From Dehalococcoidia bacterium (GTDB lineage Bacteria > Chloroflexota > Dehalococcoidia > Lucifugimonadales > CATOSD01): a stretch of 64,000 nt of DNA. The notes beneath the pieces were generated by a model. It had not been told where the DNA came from and did not search any database. It worked only from the letters and a program-made list of their open reading frames with translations. Within the stretch, counting starts at the first letter, position 1; each line of letters opens with the position of its first letter. Shown piece after piece: positions 19,307 to 33,236 of the stretch. The stretch is taken from NCBI GenBank assembly GCA_965204815.1, contig OZ242014.1:1512532-1576531 (forward strand), written 5' to 3'. The position numbers and the translations under genes are program-made.

Positions 19307-22123
19307 GTGACACTGCTCCCACCGGGGGTTGCGCCGTCCGAAGAGGTGTGGGTCGCGCTCGACCTTGAGACGACTGGCCTCAGCGCTGAGCGGGACGGCA
19401 TAATCGAGGTCGGCGCGGTGAAGTTTCGCGGCGACGAGATTCTGGACACGTTCAACTCGTTGGTGAACCCTCGCCGCCGCCTGGACGACTTCATCGTCCG
19501 GCTCACCGGCATCAATCAGAACGAGGTCGACCGCGCACCGGAGTTCGGCGCCGTGCGCCGGCAATTCGCCGAGTTCGTGGGCCAGTCCCCCATCGTCGGC
19601 CACAACCTGCGCTTCGACATGGCCTTTCTCGCCAGCCACGGCCTGGCGCTTCCCAACCCGCGCTGCGACACCTGGGACCTGGCCTACGTTCTCTACCCCG
19701 ACCTGCCCGAGTACTCTCTGGAGCGGCTCGCCGACAGATTCGGGGTGCGAAATACGAACCCCCACAGGGCGCTAGCGGACGCGCACGCCACCAGGAACGT
19801 GTTCAACGTGCTTCTGCGCCGCGTGATGGAGTTCGATGCCTTGTCGCTCGCGGAGATGGGCAGGCTGGCGGGCCGCTCGTCGTGGGTGCTGGCATACCTG
19901 CTCGACGGTATCGAGCCGCGCTCGGCTCTGGACGCCGCAACCGCATCCAGCGGCGTGTCCGCTTCCGGCCTGGACATGGACGCGCTCGGCGAGAGGCTCC
20001 AGCAGGAGCGACCCATCCGCCCCAACCAGGCCACCGAGAGGATCGACGTAGAGATGGTGGAGTCGCTGCTACGCTCCGGCAGCCCGCTGGCCGAGGCCAT
20101 GGACGGGTTCGAGGAGCGCCCCGAGCAGATCGCCGTCGCCCGCGCCGTCGCCGAGGCGATCAACGAGGGGCAGCGGCTGGTGGTGGAAGCCGGGACCGGC
20201 GTCGGCAAGTCCGTCGCCTACCTGCTGCCCGCGCTGCTCTACGCCACCGCCAACAACCGGCGCGTGGTGGTGTCCACCAACACAATCAACCTCCAGGAGC
20301 AGCTCGTCGAGAAGGACGTGCCCATGCTGGTCGAGGCGCTGGAGCACGTGCCCGGAGTTGAGGCGGCCGACTCCCGGTTCTGCCAGCTAAAGGGCAGGGC
20401 AAACTATCTGTGCCTGCGGCGCTGGTCGCGTATGAGATCGGGCGACACCCTCAACGAGGACGAGGCGCGGCTGCTTTCCAAGACCTTGGTCTGGCTGGGC
20501 GAGACGTCCACGGGCGACCGGAGCGAGCTTAACCTCGGCCATCGCAGCGCTGCGGCGCCGTGGAGCAGGCTGTCCTCCGAGCGCATGCACGAGTGCCTGG
20601 GCCTGGGCGGGCCGTGCTTCCTCCGCGCGGCTCGCGAGAAGGCCGCCGCGTCTCACGTCGTGGTGGTAAACCATGCACTGTTGCTCTCGGACGTTCTGGC
20701 GGAAGGCTCGCTGCTGCCCGAGTACGACGTGCTGATCGTCGACGAGGCGCACCACCTGGAAGAGGAGGCGACGCGCCGGTTCGGATACGACCTCTCCCAG
20801 GCGGCGCTCCAGGAACACCTGCAGCGAATCGGCGGCGAGCGCGGCCTGCTGCGCGAGGCGGTGGACGCCCTCCGCGGCTCGTCTGTGGCGGCGTCCCGGA
20901 TGGACGCAGCCGAAAAGGCGGCCTCCGACGCTACGGACCTGTCCGGTAGGGCGCTCGGCCACGCAACAAATCTGTTTGCGATGCTGGTGGAGCTGACGCT
21001 CAATCAGGGCGCGTCGAACGACTACCGCGTAACCGGCGCGGATCGCGGGCAGCCGGGCTGGTCCGATCTCGAGACGGTATGGGACAATCTGGACGTCACT
21101 CTGAGCGAACTGGGCGTCGGCCTGCGCAGCGTGAGCGCCGCCATCGACAACCTGGAAGAGGCCAACGTCGACGACTACGCGGGTCTGCGGGGCGAGCTGT
21201 CGGGCGTCACGATGGCCAACGAGGACTTTCGCCGGATGCTCAAGGAGTTCGTGCCGAATCCGCAGGAAACCGGCGTCTACTGGATAAGCAGAAATTTGGC
21301 AAACTCGGACCTGCTGCTGCACATGGCGCCGCTCGACGTTAGCGAGCAACTGGAGGAGAGCCTGTTCTCGGAGAAGGATTGCGTGGTGCTGACGAGCGCG
21401 ACGCTCACCACCGGCGGACGCTTCGACCACGTGAGAGAGCGGCTGGGCCTGGACGACGCGGAGGAGCTGCTGGTCGGCTCGCCGTTCGACTACGAAAACT
21501 CCGTGCTGCTGTGCGTGCCCGAGGACATGCCCGAACCCAACTCCTGGGCGTACCAGGAGGCGCTGGAGCAGGCGGTCAGCGACGTGGCCGTGGCCGCGAA
21601 CGGCAGGACCATGGCGCTCTTCACCTCCCACGCCTCGCTGCGGACCACGGCCCACGCGATTCGCGGCCGGCTCAGCACGCGGGGCATCGGCGTGCTCGCG
21701 CAGGGCCTGGACGGTTCGCCGCAGCAGTTGGTGCGCCGGTTCCTCGAGAACCCCGAGACCGTGCTGCTGGGCACCGCCAGCTTCTGGGAGGGCGTGGACC
21801 TGGCGGGCGAGTCGCTACAGGCGCTGCTGGTGGCGCGGCTGCCCTTCAACGTGCCCACCGAGCCGGTGTTCGAGGCGCGCTCCGAGCAGTTCGAGAACGC
21901 CTTCATGCAGTACGCCCTGCCCCAGGCAATCCTCCGGCTGCGGCAGGGCTTCGGCAGGCTGATTCGCACCAAGACCGACAGGGGCGCGGCGGTCATCCTG
22001 GACAGCCGCCTGGTGTCACGTCGGTATGGCAGGTTGTTCGTGGACTCGCTCCCGCCCGCCACGCGCAAGCGCGTGCCCCTGTACAACCTCGGTGGCGCGG
22101 TCAAGCGCTGGCTGAGGGCGTAG
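19307..22123 (+). CDS. dinG: DinG-family ATP-dependent helicase with N-terminal DEDDh 3'-5' exonuclease domain
   Basis: Exo motifs ALDLETTGL, GHNLRFDMAFL, HRALADAHAT. Helicase motifs EAGTGVGKS and VDEAHHLEE. 938 aa. Confidence 0.85.
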   Translation: MTLLPPGVAPSEEVWVALDLETTGLSAERDGIIEVGAVKFRGDEILDTFNSLVNPRRRLDDFIVRLTGINQNEVDRAPEFGAVRRQFAEFVGQSPIVGHNLRFDMAFLASHGLALPNPRCDTWDLAYVLYPDLPEYSLERLADRFGVRNTNPHRALADAHATRNVFNVLLRRVMEFDALSLAEMGRLAGRSSWVLAYLLDGIEPRSALDAATASSGVSASGLDMDALGERLQQERPIRPNQATERIDVEMVESLLRSGSPLAEAMDGFEERPEQIAVARAVAEAINEGQRLVVEAGTGVGKSVAYLLPALLYATANNRRVVVSTNTINLQEQLVEKDVPMLVEALEHVPGVEAADSRFCQLKGRANYLCLRRWSRMRSGDTLNEDEARLLSKTLVWLGETSTGDRSELNLGHRSAAAPWSRLSSERMHECLGLGGPCFLRAAREKAAASHVVVVNHALLLSDVLAEGSLLPEYDVLIVDEAHHLEEEATRRFGYDLSQAALQEHLQRIGGERGLLREAVDALRGSSVAASRMDAAEKAASDATDLSGRALGHATNLFAMLVELTLNQGASNDYRVTGADRGQPGWSDLETVWDNLDVTLSELGVGLRSVSAAIDNLEEANVDDYAGLRGELSGVTMANEDFRRMLKEFVPNPQETGVYWISRNLANSDLLLHMAPLDVSEQLEESLFSEKDCVVLTSATLTTGGRFDHVRERLGLDDAEELLVGSPFDYENSVLLCVPEDMPEPNSWAYQEALEQAVSDVAVAANGRTMALFTSHASLRTTAHAIRGRLSTRGIGVLAQGLDGSPQQLVRRFLENPETVLLGTASFWEGVDLAGESLQALLVARLPFNVPTEPVFEARSEQFENAFMQYALPQAILRLRQGFGRLIRTKTDRGAAVILDSRLVSRRYGRLFVDSLPPATRKRVPLYNLGGAVKRWLRA

Positions 22124-22125
22124 CC

Positions 22126-22995
22126 GTGCTCATTCCCTTTACCGGTCCTCTCGACCTGATAACCACGCTGGAGAGCGGCCAGGCGTTCCGCTGGCGGCGC
22201 GAGGGCGAATGGCTTACCGGCGTTGTGTTCGAGAACATCATCAGGGCGCGCCAGACGCCGGATGGGGTGGAGTTCGCGTGCGGCCCCGACGACGAGGAGG
22301 CCATCGCGCCGCTGTTCCGGGATTACCTGCGCCTGGACGACGACCTTGAGATGATCCGTGACCGCATTCGCGTGGACGACCGCATCGGGGCCGCGCTGTT
22401 GCGCTATCCCGGACTGCGCGTGCTGCGCCAGGAGCCGTGGGAGTGCCTGGTCTCGTTCATCTGCTCGGCGAACAACAACGTGCCGCGAATCAGTGTCAAC
22501 GTTGAGGACATCGCCGAGAACTTCGGCAGGCCCCTTTCGTTCGGCGAGTGCCGACGCAGCGCGTTCCCCTCTCCAGCCGAGCTGGCACAGGTGGAAGAGC
22601 AGGACCTGCGCGCGCTCGGTCTGGGATTCAGAGCCAAGTACGTCGCGGGGGCGTCCCGCATCGTGGCCGCGGGCGACCTGGACCTGTTCGCGCTGCGCGA
22701 GGCGGACTACGACGAGGCGCTGACGGCGCTGCTTGCGTTGCCGGGAGTAGGCGACAAGGTGGCCAACTGCATTCTGCTCATGTCGCTGGACAAGCGGGAG
22801 GCTTTCCCGGTTGACGTGTGGATAGATCGCGCACTGCGGGAGTGGTACCCGGAGCACGTCATTCGCGCCGATGGCAAGCCACTCACCCGCGCCGCCATGC
22901 GGCCCTGGGCGCAGTCCTACTTCGGCGAGTACGCCGGATACGCCAACCAGTATCTCTTCCAGGGCCGCCGCCTGCTGAATAGGAGCGGAGCATAG
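22126..22995 (+). CDS. ogg: 8-oxoguanine DNA glycosylase/AP lyase (Ogg1-type, HhH-GPD)
   Basis: GTG at 22126, 2 nt after the dinG stop. OGG_N-like LESGQAFRW, HhH-GPD LPGVGDKVANCILL and FPVDVWI. The long track ORF 21379-22995 overlaps dinG out of frame in its first part. Confidence 0.8.
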   Translation: MLIPFTGPLDLITTLESGQAFRWRREGEWLTGVVFENIIRARQTPDGVEFACGPDDEEAIAPLFRDYLRLDDDLEMIRDRIRVDDRIGAALLRYPGLRVLRQEPWECLVSFICSANNNVPRISVNVEDIAENFGRPLSFGECRRSAFPSPAELAQVEEQDLRALGLGFRAKYVAGASRIVAAGDLDLFALREADYDEALTALLALPGVGDKVANCILLMSLDKREAFPVDVWIDRALREWYPEHVIRADGKPLTRAAMRPWAQSYFGEYAGYANQYLFQGRRLLNRSGA

Positions 22996-23205: not shown

Positions 23206-24546
23206 ATGACTGACGTACAGGAGATTCTGCTCTCAACAATAGCAGAAAAGCGCCCCTTAATTCTCCTATTGGGCGAAGATGCTTGGAGCGACTCGCCACA
23301 GGGTGATGTCCTTCTGACGTCCGCACTCCAGAGGCTCTATGGGATCACCGAGCAAAGGAGCGGGTGGTCGGGGATGCTCACAGGAGAATCCGTACCCTCT
23401 GGGCATTATGACTGGCTAGCAGAACGCTTTGAGCGACGAAGGCACCCTCCATTTGTCGAAGTGTTGAGGGACCTCCCATGGGGCGCAGTGTTCACATCGT
23501 CGATAGACCCGACGCTCGTGAGGCTGTTTTCATATCGAGGGAGAGAGCCCGAGCCCATCCTAACTGAGGGGGAGCGTCCGCGCGCTGCCCGGAGTACGGT
23601 GCGACCACCCTTATACTATCTGTTTAGTCGCGCAGGTGAGCAGGACTTTAAGGCGCAACCACCAAGCAACCGGCGAGAACTAAACACTCGTCGTGCCCAG
23701 CATGCGGTTCCCTTACTCAACCGAATTCGGGAAACTGCGACGCCCCTAGGCACAATTGTCGTTGACGGGCTGTTGCGGGGAAACGGATGGCTCAGAATCC
23801 AGGATCTGCTAGGTGCACTTGAAGGAGCTTCGGCACATCAGATTCTATGGTTTGGCGGCAAGCCCGATCTACCTCCAGAGGATGCGGACTACTTTACGGA
23901 ACTTGTGCAAGATGGGGAAATAGTCGTTTCGGAAAAGCGACTTGGAACCGTCACTGCTGAGCTCAAAGCTACGGGGTGGCTTGCCGACATCGTTCCACTT
24001 GAATCTGAAGACGCCGGTCAAATCAGCTTCGCATCAGGTGGAGTGTATGAAGTTCCACCTGATGTCCGACTTAGAGTCGAAGCGGTGGCTTCAATCGTCG
24101 ACGACTCTTGGACTTCTTTCCTTCCACCACTCGGGCCAGATTCTAGGTACGATGCATTTCGTAGATTCCACGGTGCCCTAGGTGGGGCTCGACTTCTGGT
24201 AGAGGGTGTCAGAAGAGATTTTGCGATCGAGAGAGACTTTGAGCAACAGCTATCGAAGCAAGTGTTCGCCGCGCTTGCAGATCATTCAAGGCTCGATCTG
24301 CCTATAGTAATCGAAGGCCAATCTGGGGTTGGTAAGTCCGTAGCCTTGGCACGTCTTGTGGCTAAAGTAAGGGAAGAAAAGGCAGCGGCCGTACTCTATT
24401 CGATTGGCCGTGTCCCTCAATCCCAAGAAGTCTCAGGATTTTGCCAGGCGGTTGAGCGATCAGATGCGCCTGTGACGCTGATTGTATGCGATGCCAACAG
24501 GAATATCGACGACTATGACGAACTGTTGAGCGGACTGAGGGCCTAG
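23206..24546 (+). CDS. Island-2 protein A: divergent SIR2-like (SIR2_2-pattern) N-terminal region plus the P-loop NTPase N-half (Walker A/B); likely the 5' part of a split STAND-type gene
   Basis: PLILLLGEDAWS, AVFTSSIDPTLVRLF, PLYYLFS and ILWFGGKPDL mirror the SIR2_2 block order, but GAG, N/D and H positions are substituted. Walker A IEGQSGVGKSVALARL. Walker B VTLIVCDANR sits about 20 aa before the stop. Confidence 0.55.
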   Translation: MTDVQEILLSTIAEKRPLILLLGEDAWSDSPQGDVLLTSALQRLYGITEQRSGWSGMLTGESVPSGHYDWLAERFERRRHPPFVEVLRDLPWGAVFTSSIDPTLVRLFSYRGREPEPILTEGERPRAARSTVRPPLYYLFSRAGEQDFKAQPPSNRRELNTRRAQHAVPLLNRIRETATPLGTIVVDGLLRGNGWLRIQDLLGALEGASAHQILWFGGKPDLPPEDADYFTELVQDGEIVVSEKRLGTVTAELKATGWLADIVPLESEDAGQISFASGGVYEVPPDVRLRVEAVASIVDDSWTSFLPPLGPDSRYDAFRRFHGALGGARLLVEGVRRDFAIERDFEQQLSKQVFAALADHSRLDLPIVIEGQSGVGKSVALARLVAKVREEKAAAVLYSIGRVPQSQEVSGFCQAVERSDAPVTLIVCDANRNIDDYDELLSGLRA

Positions 24547-24635
24547 GGAGACGTGTTGTAGTAGTTGGATCACAGTATCGTGTTTCTGCCAACGAAAGCG
24601 GGGATCAACATCCACGCCTTGAGGCCACGTCTGGC

Positions 24636-26603
24636 TTGTCAGCAACTGAGAGGCAGAAACTGCTCGAGCTAATTGGTTCCTTTGACGTAGGCACGCAGTT
24701 TCAACCAGAAGGCGAGCACTTCTTGGCGTTCTTGTACCGTCACTTGCCGGCCAGCAGACCACACATCGGCTCTGGTCTCGGCGCGGAGGCAAGAGCGACC
24801 GTGCAAGTGTTGGATGAAAGGGGCAATCAGCAACAGCCAACGCCCGTAATCAGCAAGTTACACCAACAACTCGTTGAGAAGGGGTACATAAGCGAGTATC
24901 AGGCTCTCTTTGATGACCGACAATCCGACGAATTAGACGCTAATGAGCTCTCTGCGGGAAAGATCGTGGATATGGTCATGGTGGCTGGCAGGCTGAACTG
25001 CCCAGTTCCCGTGAACGTCCTTTTACGAGCAGTTAGCGACCAGTATCAGAGGTTTGACTCCACGCTAGTCTCCAGCCTATTCCGTGATCTCGACTTGTTT
25101 AGATGGGACTCTGGTGACTCCCAAGGCAACGAACTAGTTGTGCTTCCCCGGTTGCCGCTTGAGGCGCAACTCATCTGTGAACGTAGGCTTGGGAGTACGC
25201 AAGCCGAAGCTGGCGTAATCGTTGACTTGATAGGCTCGGTTCGGCTTGGGCTTGACGGGACTCACGAACGAGCATTCCTGCTTAATCTCCTTCAGCAAGT
25301 CGGACGCGACGGACCTCGGGGTAGTGCTTACAGGCATACCTATGCGGACTTTGCTCGAAAACTTACCGAACTGCGTAATCAATACAATGTGGTTGACGCC
25401 AGCCTAATGTTGCAGGAATCTGCTTTCCGAAGGAGTGCAGTGCGGGAAGAGCAAGTTGACGACGAACTTCACTTCTCACTATTAGAAGAAGCACGTGATG
25501 CGGTACAGACTGCACTAGACGGAATTGACAATGGACAGTTGCGGGCAGCAAGGCGAACGCGGCAAAACCTCCTTGTCGAACGCGCGGCACTCTATGGGTT
25601 TCTCGCTAACGACCGTGCCAGGCGAAACGAGATATCTACGGATATATGGTCTGCGTACCAAGCTGCAAGGGTTGCAGTTCGTCAAGCGGTAAGCGCAGCA
25701 GACAACTATTATCCCTACGATGTAGGAATTTGGAGCCCTGCCGACCTATTCGAATCTGCTGATTTGACAGAATCACAACGTGCGGAACTGGCGGCGGACA
25801 TATATTCCACATTGGATCAGGTGGAGCGGAACTCACTGCCACCGTCCCAAAGACAGAAGTTTCGGAGGCGCCAGATGACTGTCGGCGGTGTGCTCGGAAA
25901 CCAGGCACTCACAGACGCCGCCTACGTTGAACTTGAACGCCTGGGGTCGACTGCCGGATATTTCTTGCGCGCGCGAGGAATTGCCCCTGAATTGGGAAGC
26001 CAAGAGGTTGAAGTAACTCTAACCGCGGACATTGAGAGAGCCCAGAGAGCTGCTGACTTTTTGACTGAGCGTTTCGACAAGATTCGACAAGATGAGCGAT
26101 GTCTGTGGTTGCTACTGGAGAACCGTTGGATCACTCTGATGAGGCGTCGGCCACTTCGTGGCCAGCGTCAACCATTGCCTGAAGGCGATGCTCGTCTTGA
26201 ACTTCTCGACATCATCCGTTCGCTTAACCTTGCTGCCGGTGACTCGGCACGGTACGGGACTCGCTATCTTGAGGCAGTGCTCATATGGTTGTCGAACGAC
26301 TATATTGCCGCACGCGAGATCTTTCGACAACTCGATAGAGAAACCGATAATGTTTACCGAGGTCGAGTCTTTCGGCGTCACGTGATATCCGACTCTAGTG
26401 GCGGCCCCAAGGGATTCACCGGACGGATTGAGGACCGAACTGGACAAGACCGATGGCGGCTTCGGGTAAACGAACTCGGCCAAACAATAGACTTGCTCGA
26501 AAGAGATTTCTCCCGCGAAGACATACAATATGGACGGACACTGTCCGGATTCGCCATTGCATTCAATTTCATTGGTCCAATTGCTGATCCCATTAGGCGA
26601 TAG
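24636..26603 (+). CDS. Island-2 protein B: continuation of the NTPase core followed by about 600 aa of helical region and a small C-terminal domain
   Basis: The frame is open from 24519. In-frame upstream peptide GRRVVVVGSQYRVSANESG...RLEATSGLSATERQKLLELI resembles the post-Walker-B strand and signature helix of STAND/AAA NTPases. TTG start per the track, with no good RBS. Confidence 0.5.
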   Translation: MSATERQKLLELIGSFDVGTQFQPEGEHFLAFLYRHLPASRPHIGSGLGAEARATVQVLDERGNQQQPTPVISKLHQQLVEKGYISEYQALFDDRQSDELDANELSAGKIVDMVMVAGRLNCPVPVNVLLRAVSDQYQRFDSTLVSSLFRDLDLFRWDSGDSQGNELVVLPRLPLEAQLICERRLGSTQAEAGVIVDLIGSVRLGLDGTHERAFLLNLLQQVGRDGPRGSAYRHTYADFARKLTELRNQYNVVDASLMLQESAFRRSAVREEQVDDELHFSLLEEARDAVQTALDGIDNGQLRAARRTRQNLLVERAALYGFLANDRARRNEISTDIWSAYQAARVAVRQAVSAADNYYPYDVGIWSPADLFESADLTESQRAELAADIYSTLDQVERNSLPPSQRQKFRRRQMTVGGVLGNQALTDAAYVELERLGSTAGYFLRARGIAPELGSQEVEVTLTADIERAQRAADFLTERFDKIRQDERCLWLLLENRWITLMRRRPLRGQRQPLPEGDARLELLDIIRSLNLAAGDSARYGTRYLEAVLIWLSNDYIAAREIFRQLDRETDNVYRGRVFRRHVISDSSGGPKGFTGRIEDRTGQDRWRLRVNELGQTIDLLERDFSREDIQYGRTLSGFAIAFNFIGPIADPIRR

Positions 26604-26604
26604 A

Positions 26605-27492
26605 ATGCAGTTCTCAGAATTGAATGCGGAAGTCGAAAACCTACGCCGGTCACTTAGGAGCTTTGTGGGCGAGAACGCTCTTGAGGAAATCAACGTTCAA
26701 GCTCCGGCACGTTATGACGAGGCCTCGTTTCTTCGCTTAGGTGCGTGGAGCTATGTTCTCATCTTTGAGGCTGGCAGAGTGACGATTCCATTCCTACTTA
26801 AGCTTCCTTCCGGCCTGGGTACGCCGCAGTCCAAAATGAAGGAAACACTCGATCTGGTGCACGATCTCCGTACTTGGAGCTTCCATAACCTGAGTTTTGC
26901 TAGTGAGCGCGAGCTTGAAATGTCGAGGAGGACTACGCTGTGGTTTATAAGAAACTCCGGCTCCAGTCCCCCTAAGGATATCGCAGGATGGAGCCGCAGC
27001 TTTGAGTCCCTTTGTATCGACGTACATGCTATTGTCGCCCACTGTAAAGCTGCGTTCGAATGTGCTTTGTCCTCACCTGAAGACGAGCCGACGATAGTTG
27101 ACGACTTAAATCGCCGAGTGGATCGTAGTTGGCCTGCGTACAGATTCGACGAACTCGTTAGCGACGCCGTTATGCGTATTGGACAGAAGCTCGACGTCCC
27201 TACATTCCGTCAAAGCAGGCTCTCGAAGTGGCGAAACTATCTGCAGACGATTGCGGAGGGCGATGAACCGGAGACACAAATCGTACGCTTCATTGAGCGC
27301 GACGTTCTTGACTATTTTGAATCCGTACTCCCCATTGACGGCAAAGACGTCATGGCAGAGCTAGGTCTGAGCCCCGGACCGGCAGTAGGTAGAGCCTTAA
27401 GCAATGCTCGTCGCCTTTACGGGGCAGGAGTGACTGATCGGAACAAGCTACTAGCCTGTCTTCAAAGGGACGCCGGAAGGTTTACAACTTAA
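26605..27492 (+). CDS. Island-2 protein C: unknown function; possible HEPN-like Rx4H motif and a C-terminal motif resembling the CCA-adding enzyme/poly(A) polymerase C-terminal region
   Basis: ATG at 26605, 1 nt after the protein B stop (TAGAATG). DLRTWSFHN gives R-x4-H. C-terminal DGKDVMAELGLSPGPAVGRALSNARRLY matches the G(K/H)DL..LG..PGP..G pattern. Confidence 0.5.
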   Translation: MQFSELNAEVENLRRSLRSFVGENALEEINVQAPARYDEASFLRLGAWSYVLIFEAGRVTIPFLLKLPSGLGTPQSKMKETLDLVHDLRTWSFHNLSFASERELEMSRRTTLWFIRNSGSSPPKDIAGWSRSFESLCIDVHAIVAHCKAAFECALSSPEDEPTIVDDLNRRVDRSWPAYRFDELVSDAVMRIGQKLDVPTFRQSRLSKWRNYLQTIAEGDEPETQIVRFIERDVLDYFESVLPIDGKDVMAELGLSPGPAVGRALSNARRLYGAGVTDRNKLLACLQRDAGRFTT

Positions 27493-27628: not shown

Positions 27629-27672
27629 AGTATTCAAGTGGATCGATCACGTGGTAATCGCCTTCACCCGAC
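27629..27672 (+). pseudogene. Orphan 5' fragment homologous to the start of the VOC/epimerase gene at 29366-29752
   Basis: AGTATTCAAGTGGATCGATCACGTGGTAATCGCCTTCACCCGAC matches the reverse complement of 29710-29752 (AGTGTTCAAGTGGGTAGATCACGTCGTAATCGCCGTCAACGACC). GTA replaces the GTG start codon. Confidence 0.55.
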
Positions 27673-27674
27673 AG

Positions 27675-28073
27675 GCTGGCGCAAGTGGAGGAGTCGGCGT
27701 TGCGCAAACTCGGGCTGGGCTTCAGGGCCAAGTACGTCGCGGGTGAGGCCCGCATTGTGGCCGCGGGCGACCTGGACCTGTTCGCGCTCCGCGAGGCGGA
27801 CTACGACGAAGCCCTCGCCGCACTGCTCGAGCTGCCGGGCGTGGGCGACAAGGTAGGCAACTGCATTCTGCTCATGTCGCTGGATAAACGGGAGGCGTCC
27901 CCGGTTGACTTGTGGATAGACCGCGCGCTGCGGGAATGGTACCCGGAGCACGTCATTCGCGCCGACGGCAAGCCGCTGACCCGCGCCGCCATGTGGCCCT
28001 GGGCGCAGTCCTACTTCGGCGAGTACGCTGGCTACGCAATCCAGTACCTGTTTCAGGGCCGCCGCCTGCTGAA
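27675..28073 (+). pseudogene. Orphan 3' fragment of an ogg homolog (direct repeat of 22581-22979)
   Basis: 399-nt gap-free alignment with 22581-22979, with about 51 mismatches by hand count. Encodes LGLGFRAKYVAGEARIVAAGDLDLF...LPGVGDKVGNCILLMSLDKREASPVDLWIDRALREWYPEHV. It has no 5' half and no equivalent stop. Confidence 0.8.
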
Positions 28074-28660: not shown

Positions 28661-29299
28661 ATGAAAAGACCCTGCGCACGGAACGAGAAATCGCGCCGCA
28701 GATTCGCTCCTTGTGCTATGCTATATCTGATGACCGCCACCCGACTCACCCTGTTCGCCGCGACTCTGATCTGGGTTGCCCTCGCCTGTTCGTCTCCCGA
28801 GCCGACGCCGACGCCTGAGCCGACTTCCACGCCGGCTCCCACGGCCATCCCCGTACCGACGGCGCCCCCTGAGCCAACGCCCGAACCCACTCCCACGCCG
28901 TCCGGCCAGCCCACGCGCGGGCTGTTCGAGTACATCCGCGCGGTCTCGTACCTCGAGGCGAACCTGTGGGAGGAGGCCATCCCCGCTTACGGGCTGGTGA
29001 TTCGCATCCTTCCGGACATGGCCGTTGCGTACCACGGGCGGGGATACGCCTACTACAACGAGGCCATCGAGGAGGAGAACGACAACCTGTTCAGGCCCGC
29101 GATGGAGGACTACGACAAGGCTATCGAGCTAAAGCCCGAATTCGCGCAGGCGTACAAGGACCGGGCGATCCTGCACCACCACTTGGGCGACACGGAGGCC
29201 GCAATCGCCGACATCGAGCGCGCGGTGCGTCACTACGACCCGCGTCGGCAGCCCGTCGGCCTGAACGAGGCCAGAGAGCTTCTGAACCAGTGGCGCTAG
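28661..29299 (+). CDS. TPR-repeat lipoprotein with Pro/Thr-rich linker
   Basis: Signal/lipobox-like LIWVALACSS, PEPTPTPEPTSTPAPT linker, and TPR-like AYHGRGYAYYN and AQAYKDRAILHHHLGD. The true start may be the internal Met at 28718. Confidence 0.7.
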   Translation: MKRPCARNEKSRRRFAPCAMLYLMTATRLTLFAATLIWVALACSSPEPTPTPEPTSTPAPTAIPVPTAPPEPTPEPTPTPSGQPTRGLFEYIRAVSYLEANLWEEAIPAYGLVIRILPDMAVAYHGRGYAYYNEAIEEENDNLFRPAMEDYDKAIELKPEFAQAYKDRAILHHHLGDTEAAIADIERAVRHYDPRRQPVGLNEARELLNQWR

Positions 29300-32231: not shown

Positions 32232-33236
32232 CTAGCATCCGGGTGGATAGCTCTTGCTCGACACCAGCGTACCGTCGGTATCGTACAGGCCCGCCTCGTC
32301 CGGGTCGCTGTTGCTCCAGATCGCGCTGCGTGACCCGAAGCTGAATCCTCCCGAATCCGAGTGTACCTGATTGGTATAGACACGGATCGTTTCACCCGGC
32401 GCCAGTGTCCGCGTTGGGAACACGAACTGCGGCTTGCCGTCCGCGATGTCCAGCAGCCGCCATCCCCTCAGCTCTTGGGGGCTTCCGCCTTCGTTCACGA
32501 TTGCCACGTACTCGTCGGATTCCGTCCGCGGCACCTCTCCGTCGAAGAACACGCAGGCGATGCGCACGTCCGGCGTCGCCGATTCAGGCGTGTCAGTGGG
32601 TTCGGGCGTAGGAGTGTCGGTTGGCAGTGGTGTGGGCGTATCGGTCGGCGTGGGGTTAGGCGTGTCAGTTGGCTCTGGCGTCGGAGTGTCGGTCGGCGCT
32701 GGGGTGTCGGCAGGCTGTGGCATGGCCGTGTCGGTCGGTGCTGGCGCTGGCGTATCTGTAGGCGGTGGTATGGGTGTATCGGTCGGACGCGGGGCAGGTG
32801 TGTCCGTCGGGTGCGGGCTGGCAGTGCGGGTCGGCGCGGCCGTTGGCGTGTTGGTCGGCAGCGGCGTTGGAGTCCGCGTCGGCAGGGCAGTCACTGTTGC
32901 GGTAGCCTCAGGCGTGGGCGTCGGAGTTGCCTCAGGCGGTGGCGTGGCCGAGGGCCCAGGAGTAGGCTGCGGCGTCAGCGTAGGCGTGGGCCGTGTAGTG
33001 GCGACAGCCGTTGGTTCGGGCGCAGCCGTAGGCGCGGGCGCCAGCGCCGCGACCAGCACCGGCGTATCTGTGGGCGCTGGCGTAGGTGCTGGCGACGGAG
33101 TGGCTGTGCCCGCGGCGCCTGTCTGCCCGCCACACGCGGACGACAGGGCGAGCAGAGCGAAGGCGGAAACCACGATGACCAGCCGCACGACAACGCGCAA
33201 CTGGCGCGCTGGGCAGTCTGGCTCGTTGTCCTCCAT
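32232..33236 (-). CDS. Secreted/anchored protein with a very long Pro-Thr-Asp repeat region and a C-terminal lamin-tail-like (LTD) domain
   Basis: N-terminal TM/signal segment with ALSSACGG. About 200 aa of PTDTPxPxPTDTP repeats. C-terminal [24 protein letters not shown]...[15 protein letters not shown] follows the LTD pattern. Confidence 0.65.

Follow-up and report, generated by a model that had tools for sequence, protein, structure and literature searches.

Protein C, a probable tRNA-directed partner of a STAND NTPase in a two-gene module of a Dehalococcoidia bacterium

What is the task of a small protein that combines a conserved Arg/His motif with a segment resembling an enzyme of tRNA maturation, and whose gene directly follows that of a large NTPase? 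The question is raised by gene C of a Dehalococcoidia bacterium, which lies in a stretch of 64,000 nucleotides (nt) of contig OZ242014.1 (assembly GCA_965204815.1, positions 1,512,532 to 1,576,531 of the forward strand). The whole of this stretch is referred to as the window, and the coordinates of its features are positions within it.

26605..27492, + strand: gene C, open reading frame (ORF) of 295 amino acids (aa); conserved small subunit of a two-gene module

Protein C is probably the tRNA-directed effector of a hitherto undescribed defence system. A role directed at RNA or tRNA had been proposed in an earlier note on this DNA, and it stands as the best reading of the protein, given the homology of its tail to that of CCA-adding enzymes. 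The same note held that protein C acts with the NTPase, and gene order bears this out: gene C directly follows a gene of ~1130 aa with an nSTAND5 domain in 22 of 22 distinct loci. These comprise 15 loci from GTDB representative genomes, loci from metagenomic contigs, three loci of the second of two subfamilies described below, and one TIR fusion.

Gene C starts with an ATG at 26605-26607 and terminates with a TAA stop at 27490-27492. The upstream ORF ends with a TAG stop at 26601-26603, and the resulting TAGAATG junction leaves a spacer of 1 nt before the gene C ATG, a spacing that is typical of translational coupling and predicts it here. Re-reading of the sequence confirmed the coordinates, the 295-aa length and the TAGAATG junction reported in the earlier note. 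In the homologous loci, the STAND gene and gene C overlap by 4 nt or are separated by 1 nt or by up to 16 nt.

A word-indexed search identified 188 relatives of protein C, and the 120 that were listed are nearly all ~290-330 aa long and without a Pfam domain. An exhaustive HMMER scan over 1.84 billion proteins extended the family to 599 cluster representatives (50% identity clusters, E<=1e-3), nearly all of ~300 aa. The family consists of two subfamilies with ~25% identity between them, and the conservation counts given in the following sections refer to an alignment of 289 sequences. Among the GTDB representatives, the hosts of the gene pair are Dehalococcoidia, Caldilineaceae, Gammaproteobacteria, Bryobacterales and other Acidobacteriota, Spirochaetia and Mesorhizobium, and subfamily 2 includes Paenibacillus solanacearum. 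The spread is patchy over six phyla (Chloroflexota, Gammaproteobacteria, Alphaproteobacteria, Acidobacteriota, Spirochaetia, Paenibacillus). Homologues of protein C were absent from the plasmid and phage collections searched.

The AlphaFold2 model of protein C, built from a 48-sequence alignment, is all-alpha and confident (predicted local distance difference test, pLDDT, 93.4; predicted template modelling score, pTM, 0.77). It contains 14 helices in two regions, at residues 3-20, 39-56, 60-65, 75-93, 101-118, 126-156, 161-173, 178-192, 198-203, 206-215, 222-240, 246-253, 259-273 and 279-292. The structure prediction and Foldseek search that the earlier note had called for thus delivered a good model, and the comparison with the PDB gave matches at noise level only, the best of which (E=0.21) is the CCA-adding enzyme of B. 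stearothermophilus (1miv). A Foldseek search of BFVD found no match. The full-length profile, when compared with the PDB, yielded a marginal match to TRNT1 (E=0.8) only, and its matches to SUPT7L are spurious.

The tail of protein C

The similarity to CCA-adding enzymes becomes clear when the end of the protein is considered separately.

27322..27486, + strand: module resembling the tail of CCA-adding enzymes, residues 240-294, helix-loop-helix-helix (profile A4, PF13735)

The earlier note had described protein C as ending with a CCA-enzyme-like motif. The motif is present at residues 242-275, as LPIDGKDVMAELGLSPGPAVGRALSNARRLYGAG, but is not terminal, since another 20 residues follow it. The same stretch can be written LPIDGKDVMAELGLSPGPAVG...YGAG, within which the segment LPIDGKD...PGPAVG covers residues 242-262. 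A single-sequence search of the PDB with the C-terminal 54 aa of the window's own protein gave no match. A profile of the last 80 residues of the family (A4), when searched against the PDB, matched human TRNT1 in three entries (4x4w_A, E=4.8e-5; 8cbm_E, 3.6e-4; 1ou5_A, 4.4e-4), followed by weaker matches to yeast-type cca1, the A-adding enzyme and the B. stearothermophilus enzyme. Designed dTor repeat proteins were the top matches of this profile and were disregarded as repeat artefacts. The Pfam family PF13735 (tRNA_NucTran2_2) was matched by 49 of 62 isolated C-termini and by 30 of 48 full-length members, with a best E of 4.7e-6; precomputed matches to it exist for three relatives (P0178, P0298, P0308). 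The Paenibacillus member is named "CCA-adding enzyme C-terminal domain-containing protein" in UniRef. With the TRNT1 profile match, the PF13735 matches and this name in agreement, the assignment of the motif is upheld, and by profile comparison the tail of protein C is homologous to that of class II CCA-adding enzymes.

The HMMER alignment places LPIxGxD...PGPxVG of the protein C family on FPVSGHD...SSGKEIG of TRNT1 (residue numbers of TRNT1 are the chain numbering offset by +26). G246 and K247 are paired with G390 and H391 of TRNT1, and G258, P259 and G262 with G401, K402 and G405. In a 2026 cryo-electron microscopy study of TRNT1, G390 and H391 contact the tRNA backbone at C56 of the T-loop, and G401, K402 and G405, which lie at the N-terminal end of helix alpha-20, stack on the G19:C56 pair of the elbow (bioRxiv 10.64898/2026.03.02.709036). 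The corresponding glycines of the protein C family are well conserved (G246 in 239/289, G258 in 271/289 and G262 in 209/289), and in the model G246/K247 and G258/P259/G262 sit at the N-termini of helices 246-253 and 259-273, respectively. The last 55 residues alone are basic, with an isoelectric point (pI) of 9.8, and the protein overall is acidic (pI 5.6; family median 5.66). These correspondences strongly suggest that the tail of protein C binds the tRNA elbow.

The likeness to class II CCA-adding enzymes is confined to this elbow-docking tail; the head, neck and body of those enzymes are absent. The nucleotidyltransferase head was not detected, as none of the 48 members matches PolyA_pol (PF01743) and the model is helical and without beta sheet, and neither a neck nor a recognisable body domain was found in protein C. 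Protein C is therefore not a CCA-adding enzyme, since it lacks the Pol-beta nucleotidyltransferase head.

The N-terminal domain and its Arg/His site

The N-terminal part of protein C holds the Arg/His motif.

26605..27132, + strand: N-terminal helical domain, residues 1-176 (DSSP of the AlphaFold2 model)
26767..26778, + strand: E55-A-G-R58 at the C-terminal end of helix 2 (E55 in 283/289, R/K58 in 259/289); candidate counterpart of the HEPN Ex3[KR] element
26869..26889, + strand: Rx4H site, putatively catalytic (R89 in 288/289, T90 in 273/289, H94 in 288/289, N95 in 253/289)

In this domain helix 1 comprises residues 3-20, helix 2 residues 39-56, helix 3 residues 75-93 and helix 4 residues 101-118; a short helix (60-65) lies between helices 2 and 3, and two further helices (126-156 and 161-173) come after helix 4. 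The sequence DLRTWSFHN spans residues 87-95, and RTWSFH residues 89-94, with R89 encoded at 26869-26871 and H94 at 26884-26886. A single Rx4H in protein C is not significant, because 32% of shuffles of the protein also contain one (69% contain an Rx4-6H). The motif is nevertheless more than a chance occurrence, because 288 of 289 sequences have R89 and as many have H94, and both residues are invariant across two subfamilies that share ~25% identity. The Rx4H is the best-conserved feature of a large family. Other positions at the top of the conservation list are W113 and W209 (287/289 each), E55 (283/289), E231 (278/289) and E39 (271/289); E39 is situated at the start of helix 39-56 and E55 at its end. 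In the N-terminal domain, F42, E55, R89, T90, H94, W113 and P123 are invariant across both subfamilies.

The earlier note had read this motif as one of the HEPN type. In the published description of the HEPN superfamily, the motif sits where helix 3 ends, and its Arg is followed by a polar residue, usually Asn, Asp or His; a conserved acid is located in helix 2, often within Ex3[KR], and inserts of variable size occur between helices 2 and 3 (PMC3710099). R89 and H94 of protein C conform to the Rx4-6H spacing. R89 falls in the last turn of helix 75-93, H94 is the first residue of the loop and helix 101-118 comes next, which agrees with the placement of the HEPN motif as judged from the secondary structure of the AlphaFold2 model only. 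The residue after R89 is Thr in 273 of 289 sequences, which is polar yet outside the usual Asn/Asp/His. E55-x-G57-R/K58 ends helix 39-56 with Ex2[RK] spacing, in contrast to the HEPN-typical Ex3[KR]. The position of the insertion hot-spot between helices 2 and 3 is occupied by the short helix 60-65 and a loop, and inserts of ~85 aa occur exactly after residue 74 in five members of subfamily 2 (P0189, P0204, P0241, P0277 and P0307). The insert of P0241 shows a weak match to RNA_pol_A_CTD/HHH_5, which is HhH-like (E=3.5e-4, 20.7 bits vs a cut-off of 23.8).

Protein C has in common with HEPN proteins an Rx4-6H where helix 3 ends and inserts between helices 2 and 3, as well as the association with an NTPase and, probably, with defence; the Thr after the Arg and the acid in helix 2 are candidate counterparts that depart from the usual pattern. 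It differs by ~3 extra helices and by additional invariant residues of the Trp and Glu type. HEPN anticodon nucleases that are linked to an NTPase, PrrC and RloC among them, belong to the nearest functional analogues. The Foldseek comparison of protein C with the PDB contains no HEPN entry in its top 50, and no four-helix up-and-down bundle that superposes on a solved HEPN domain was found in this way. The profile of the N-terminal domain (A5), searched against Pfam, NCBIfam and PDB sequences, retrieved no HEPN family and nothing consistent. We also note a lone NCBIfam match to Cas13e for one N-terminal domain sequence (E=0.034), which is isolated and probably due to chance. Of the HEPN assignment, the conserved motif, its position on helix 3 and the insertion hot-spot have held, and the fold or profile match has not. 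Because the rules are matched well but the fold and profile searches are negative, we call the domain HEPN-like in the arrangement of its active site only; the HEPN assignment as such is plausible but unproven, and membership of the superfamily is not established.

These observations also bear on the view that protein C is an enzyme of another kind, with a new helical fold whose Glu/Arg/His centre acts on a nucleotide, the tRNA 3' end, an aminoacyl bond or a signalling molecule, the tail serving for positioning only. The missing structural neighbour in the PDB and BFVD despite a confident model (pLDDT 93) fits this view, as do the Thr after the Arg and the invariant W113, W209 and E231, which lie outside any HEPN core. 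Motif placement, helix-2 acid and insertion hot-spot, however, all coincide with the HEPN rules, and the HhH-like insert beside the motif in P0241, although a weak match, favours a polynucleotide substrate. We consider such an enzyme unlikely.

The STAND partner and its setting

The gene upstream of gene C is interrupted in the window, and its features are as follows.

23206..24546, + strand: 5' part of the STAND gene ("ORF A", 446 aa) with a SIR2-like domain (~1-260), a linker and the start of nSTAND5 (PF25199)
24316-24339 and 24490-24492, + strand: Walker A GQSGVGKS and Walker B Asp, respectively, within ORF A
24536..24548, + strand: frameshift of the STAND gene, a 1-nt deletion near 24538 (GLRA* vs GLRSRGRRVVVLGSQ in intact homologues)
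24546..26603, + strand: 3' part of the STAND gene ("protein B"; listed ORF from 24636) with the rest of the NTPase, a helical sensor of ~550 aa and the C-terminal domain
26380-26603, + strand: C-terminal domain of the STAND protein, last ~75 residues, with conserved GR[VI]...F.IAFNFIGPIADP (alignment A7)

The earlier note had treated protein B as distinct from the ORF of the NTPase. The match of an intact homologue of 1132 aa in a tblastn search runs in frame 1 up to residue 448 and in frame 3 from there on, and residues 448-1132 are 72.6% identical; three-frame translation together with DNA alignment with four homologous loci (L001, L003, L012 and L019) locates a 1-nt deletion in the gene of the window. 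The existence of A and B as separate proteins is rejected on these grounds, and the two are the halves of a single frameshifted STAND gene of ~1130 aa. The deletion reflects either a pseudogene or an assembly error, and the system may be inactive here unless the latter applies. The gene is also frameshifted in L010 (4611-7992, Mesorhizobium hawassense, three frames) and in L017 (2-3380), and database gene calls of the STAND N-terminus are in many cases truncated (200-576 aa). Such frequent breaks may stem from frequent decay or from indel errors of long reads.

The NTPase is assigned by the match of an intact homologue to PF25199 (nSTAND_NTPase5; 47.8 bits vs a cut-off of 34), and its motifs are intact in the family, the Walker A GQSGxGK and the Walker B Asp (position 429) being invariant. 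The ~650 residues that follow the NTPase are helical and end in a small conserved domain, which has no match in Pfam or the PDB; by position alone, it could correspond to the OB domain of SAMD9. The AlphaFold2 model of the first 340 residues has a pLDDT of 65.5 (core 70-94), and Foldseek retrieved 22 PDB matches below 1e-3 with it, led by DSR2 (2.7e-5) and ThsA (3.8e-5) and followed by KomC/HAM-SIR2 and sirtuins; EfAvs5, a SIR2-STAND protein, scored E=0.048. In the model, the N-terminus clearly adopts the SIR2 fold. The SIR2 motifs are degenerate, with GAGxS replaced by G-[EQ]-D-A-W-S, TTNYD by T-S-S-x-D and (K)LHG by Y-L-F-S. In 17 homologues from both subfamilies, the first 330 residues contain no conserved His or Asn, which means that the catalytic Asn/His pair of SIR2 NADases is absent, and we infer that the SIR2-like domain is inactive. 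No other recognisable effector domain was found in the STAND protein. A homotypic pairing of protein C and the STAND protein, of the type used by adaptors, was rejected, as hhalign gave a probability of 0.3% for a domain common to the two.

The partner has the layout of a STAND receptor, in which a P-loop NTPase is placed between an N-terminal output domain and a C-terminal repeat sensor. In Avs5, too, a SIR2 fold at the N-terminus is followed by a STAND NTPase and then by a helical repeat sensor at the C-terminus. Avs5, however, is encoded by one gene only and combines an active SIR2 NADase with nSTAND3 (PF20720), whereas the present system has nSTAND5 (PF25199) and an obligatory second gene. 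The Asn and His of an active SIR2 domain and a match to the Avs5 model, by which Avs5 is recognised, are both lacking here, and the PADLOC Avs models were silent.

A second parallel is provided by SAMD9, which consists of a tRNase, a SIR2-like scaffold that is unlikely to bind NAD, and NOD, TPR and OB domains (PMC13600222), and which cleaves tRNA-Phe (PMC12680541, PMC13600222). In SAMD9/9L and the bacterial Avs9, the NAD lid is missing from the SIR2-like domain, and activation is driven by SIR2/SIR2 contacts (PMC13600222, PMC12680541). The present system is like SAMD9/Avs9 in that a SIR2-like domain not expected to bind NAD comes before a STAND NTPase, which is followed by helical repeats and a small domain at the C-terminus; the tRNA-directed output is a proposed further likeness. 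It differs in that the proposed effector is encoded separately and has another fold, which is not AlbA_2. The profile of the STAND protein was compared with the solved chains of SAMD9 and Avs5 and gave generic P-loop matches only, so that a relationship in sequence was dropped and the parallel is architectural only. By this analogy, the system resembles a SAMD9-like core with a separate tRNA-directed effector. The NTPase-centred effector-swapping systems described by Kaur, Burroughs, Iyer and Aravind likewise place a conserved module beside a STAND protein, with an occasional TIR or PNP. In those systems the adaptor is Death-like and of ~100 aa, in contrast to protein C, which has ~295 aa, an invariant polar site of its own and no homotypic copy in the NTPase. 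Taken together, the pair is probably a STAND/Avs-like antiviral system with a pseudo-SIR2 domain and an unusual trans-acting partner that would dock on tRNA.

The intimate linkage of the two genes could also mean that protein C regulates the STAND protein, as an antitoxin-like inhibitor, a chaperone or an assembly factor, with the STAND protein itself as the effector. Translational coupling and strict co-occurrence would suit a stoichiometric regulator, and the frequent frameshifts or truncations of the STAND gene (in the window, L010 and L017) look as if the gene were costly. We regard a regulator as very unlikely: the STAND protein has no recognisable effector domain and a SIR2 domain without catalytic residues, regulators seldom gain TIR or PNP toxin domains, and protein C is not homologous to any part of the STAND protein.

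Such toxin domains are indeed found on rare relatives of protein C. Among 150 listed representatives of the family, two have a C-terminal TIR domain (P0134 and P0192) and one a PNP_UDP_1 domain (P0206); the R/H motif is kept in all three, and the TIR fusion P0192 lies 3 nt downstream of its STAND gene. TIR and PNP are classical effector domains of defence systems, and their attachment suggests that protein C is placed on the output arm and is clustered on activation. A different fusion is seen in P0165 (473 aa, on a 147-kb contig), in which the SIR2-like N-terminal ~345 residues of a STAND protein run straight into a C-like part that corresponds to residues ~162-294. The loss of the NTPase, of the sensor and of the N-terminal domain of C gives this chimera the look of a deletion product.

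The fusions are also in keeping with an effector-carrying adaptor, and protein C may be a non-catalytic tRNA-binding adaptor or co-sensor. Its tail would hold a tRNA of host or phage, or a structure like tRNA, for presentation to the STAND protein, or protein C would signal to the latter that tRNA is damaged or missing. Arg and His, though invariant, would then bind RNA phosphate, and killing would be due to the appended TIR or PNP, to an unrecognised activity of the STAND protein or to sequestration of tRNA. The homology of the tail speaks for binding and not for cleavage, and the N-terminal domain has no HEPN fold or profile support. EF-Tu, a host translation factor, occurs bound to SeAvs7 in its complex (PMC13581612), which counts in favour of this reading. 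In contrast, ~98% of the representatives are without an appended effector (3 of 150 listed have one), and with so few fusions and a partner whose SIR2 domain lacks the catalytic residues, the common form of the system would be left without an effector. In addition, R, H and E are the most conserved residues and are kept even in the fusions, which is more typical of catalysis. We judge a pure adaptor to be possible, if somewhat unlikely.

The setting of the pair was also analysed. In the window it is located on an island of ~4.6 kb with a G+C content (GC) of ~52%, compared with ~67% around it, and the island is flanked by direct repeats.

22567..22866, + strand: left direct repeat (300 nt, 85% identity), 3' part of an intact ogg/AlkA-like glycosylase gene
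27661..27960, + strand: right direct repeat, orphan 3' fragment of the same glycosylase gene, at the other end of the island

The ~4.6-kb island contains no integrase, and searches of it for tRNA genes, Rfam families and notable promoters or terminators came back empty. In other genomes, the neighbours of the pair include type I restriction-modification, SNF2/NOV_C, TIR and AAA_15/21 genes (L003), AbiEi, a PIN toxin-antitoxin pair and an SLOG-like gene (L021), and ImmA/IrrE, HEPN_RES_NTD1, IS1595, a relaxase and a recombinase (L022). An integrase is found beside the pair in L023 and transposases in L004 and L024, and the pair sometimes lies between housekeeping genes (L001, L020). As a raw count, defence or mobile-element neighbours are present in 6 of 8 annotated contexts. 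Such a context is what a mobile defence cassette would be expected to show.

The only recognisable domain of protein C derives from a tRNA-maturation enzyme, which might suggest a housekeeping accessory factor of tRNA maturation or repair, outside defence. A sporadic distribution, the repeat-flanked low-GC island, the constant linkage to a STAND gene, the defence and mobile neighbours, the TIR and PNP fusions and the missing nucleotidyltransferase head make such a factor hardly credible. PADLOC 2.0 reports no system for A, B, C or the intact homologues, and a literature search on nSTAND5, PF25199 or PF13735 in defence found nothing. The main text of a 2026 survey of bacterial STAND receptors does not describe the pair.

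Elsewhere in the window, a 938-aa fusion of a DnaQ-like exonuclease and a DinG-type helicase is encoded at 19307-22123, directly upstream of the glycosylase gene; it is housekeeping-like and lies outside the island. Two predicted proteins (28661-29299 and 32232-33236, - strand) have long Pro/Thr/Glu-rich linkers of low complexity (PTPEPT repeats), as is typical of the secreted or anchored type seen in high-GC bacteria, and are unrelated to STAND and C.

A proposed mechanism and its meaning

We tentatively favour a mobile antiviral module of two genes, in which a STAND sensor is combined with protein C as a tRNA-docking, HEPN-like effector that cleaves tRNA. By analogy with Avs and SAMD9, the sensor would bind a ligand derived from the invader, and the NTPase would drive oligomerisation. 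The dead SIR2 domain, unable to deplete NAD+, would act as a scaffold that recruits and clusters protein C, whose homologous tail would dock on the tRNA elbow at the G19:C56 corner. Clustering would pair the E55...R89-T-x3-H94-N95 sites to form a HEPN-like, metal-independent endoribonuclease centre, and tRNA would be cut at a fixed distance from the elbow, which would lead to a stop of translation and abortive infection. In the rare relatives with an appended TIR or PNP, these domains would be switched on by the same induced proximity. Somewhat less probable is the fuller version of this proposal, in which the elbow anchor of a CCA-adding enzyme has been exapted, protein C forms a new HEPN-like clade that uses the elbow as a ruler and is licensed in trans by a STAND protein whose dead SIR2 domain serves for assembly, and the whole is the bacterial, split-gene counterpart of the SAMD9 tRNase pathway.

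Several points weigh against a tRNA-cleaving module. All of the evidence is computational. The similarity to the tail of CCA-adding enzymes spans only ~55 residues, and protein C is acidic apart from them. The structural and profile searches of protein C produced no HEPN relative, the Arg is followed by Thr and not by Asn, Asp or His, and the acid stands in Ex2[RK] in place of Ex3[KR]. From an adaptor that carries effectors one would expect the TIR and PNP fusions just as much. As for the partner, its gene is broken in this window, its profile finds only the generic P-loop in solved SAMD9 and Avs5 chains, and the loss of SIR2 activity is read from sequence conservation, the model of that domain being of moderate confidence only (pLDDT 65.5).

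STAND (NLR-like) receptors have a central place in the immunity of both bacteria and animals, and to our knowledge nearly all characterised bacterial examples have the effector in the same polypeptide. If protein C proves to be an adaptor only, the pair would still be an uncatalogued two-gene STAND system that is missing from PADLOC 2.0. If it is a tRNA-docking nuclease, it would represent a new type of effector and a new use of the CCA-enzyme tail, and R89, H94, E55, G246, G258 and G262 would be the residues to mutate. The module would then offer a tractable bacterial model for the coupling of a STAND switch with tRNA cleavage through a SIR2 scaffold that is not catalytic, the problem posed by human SAMD9/9L.

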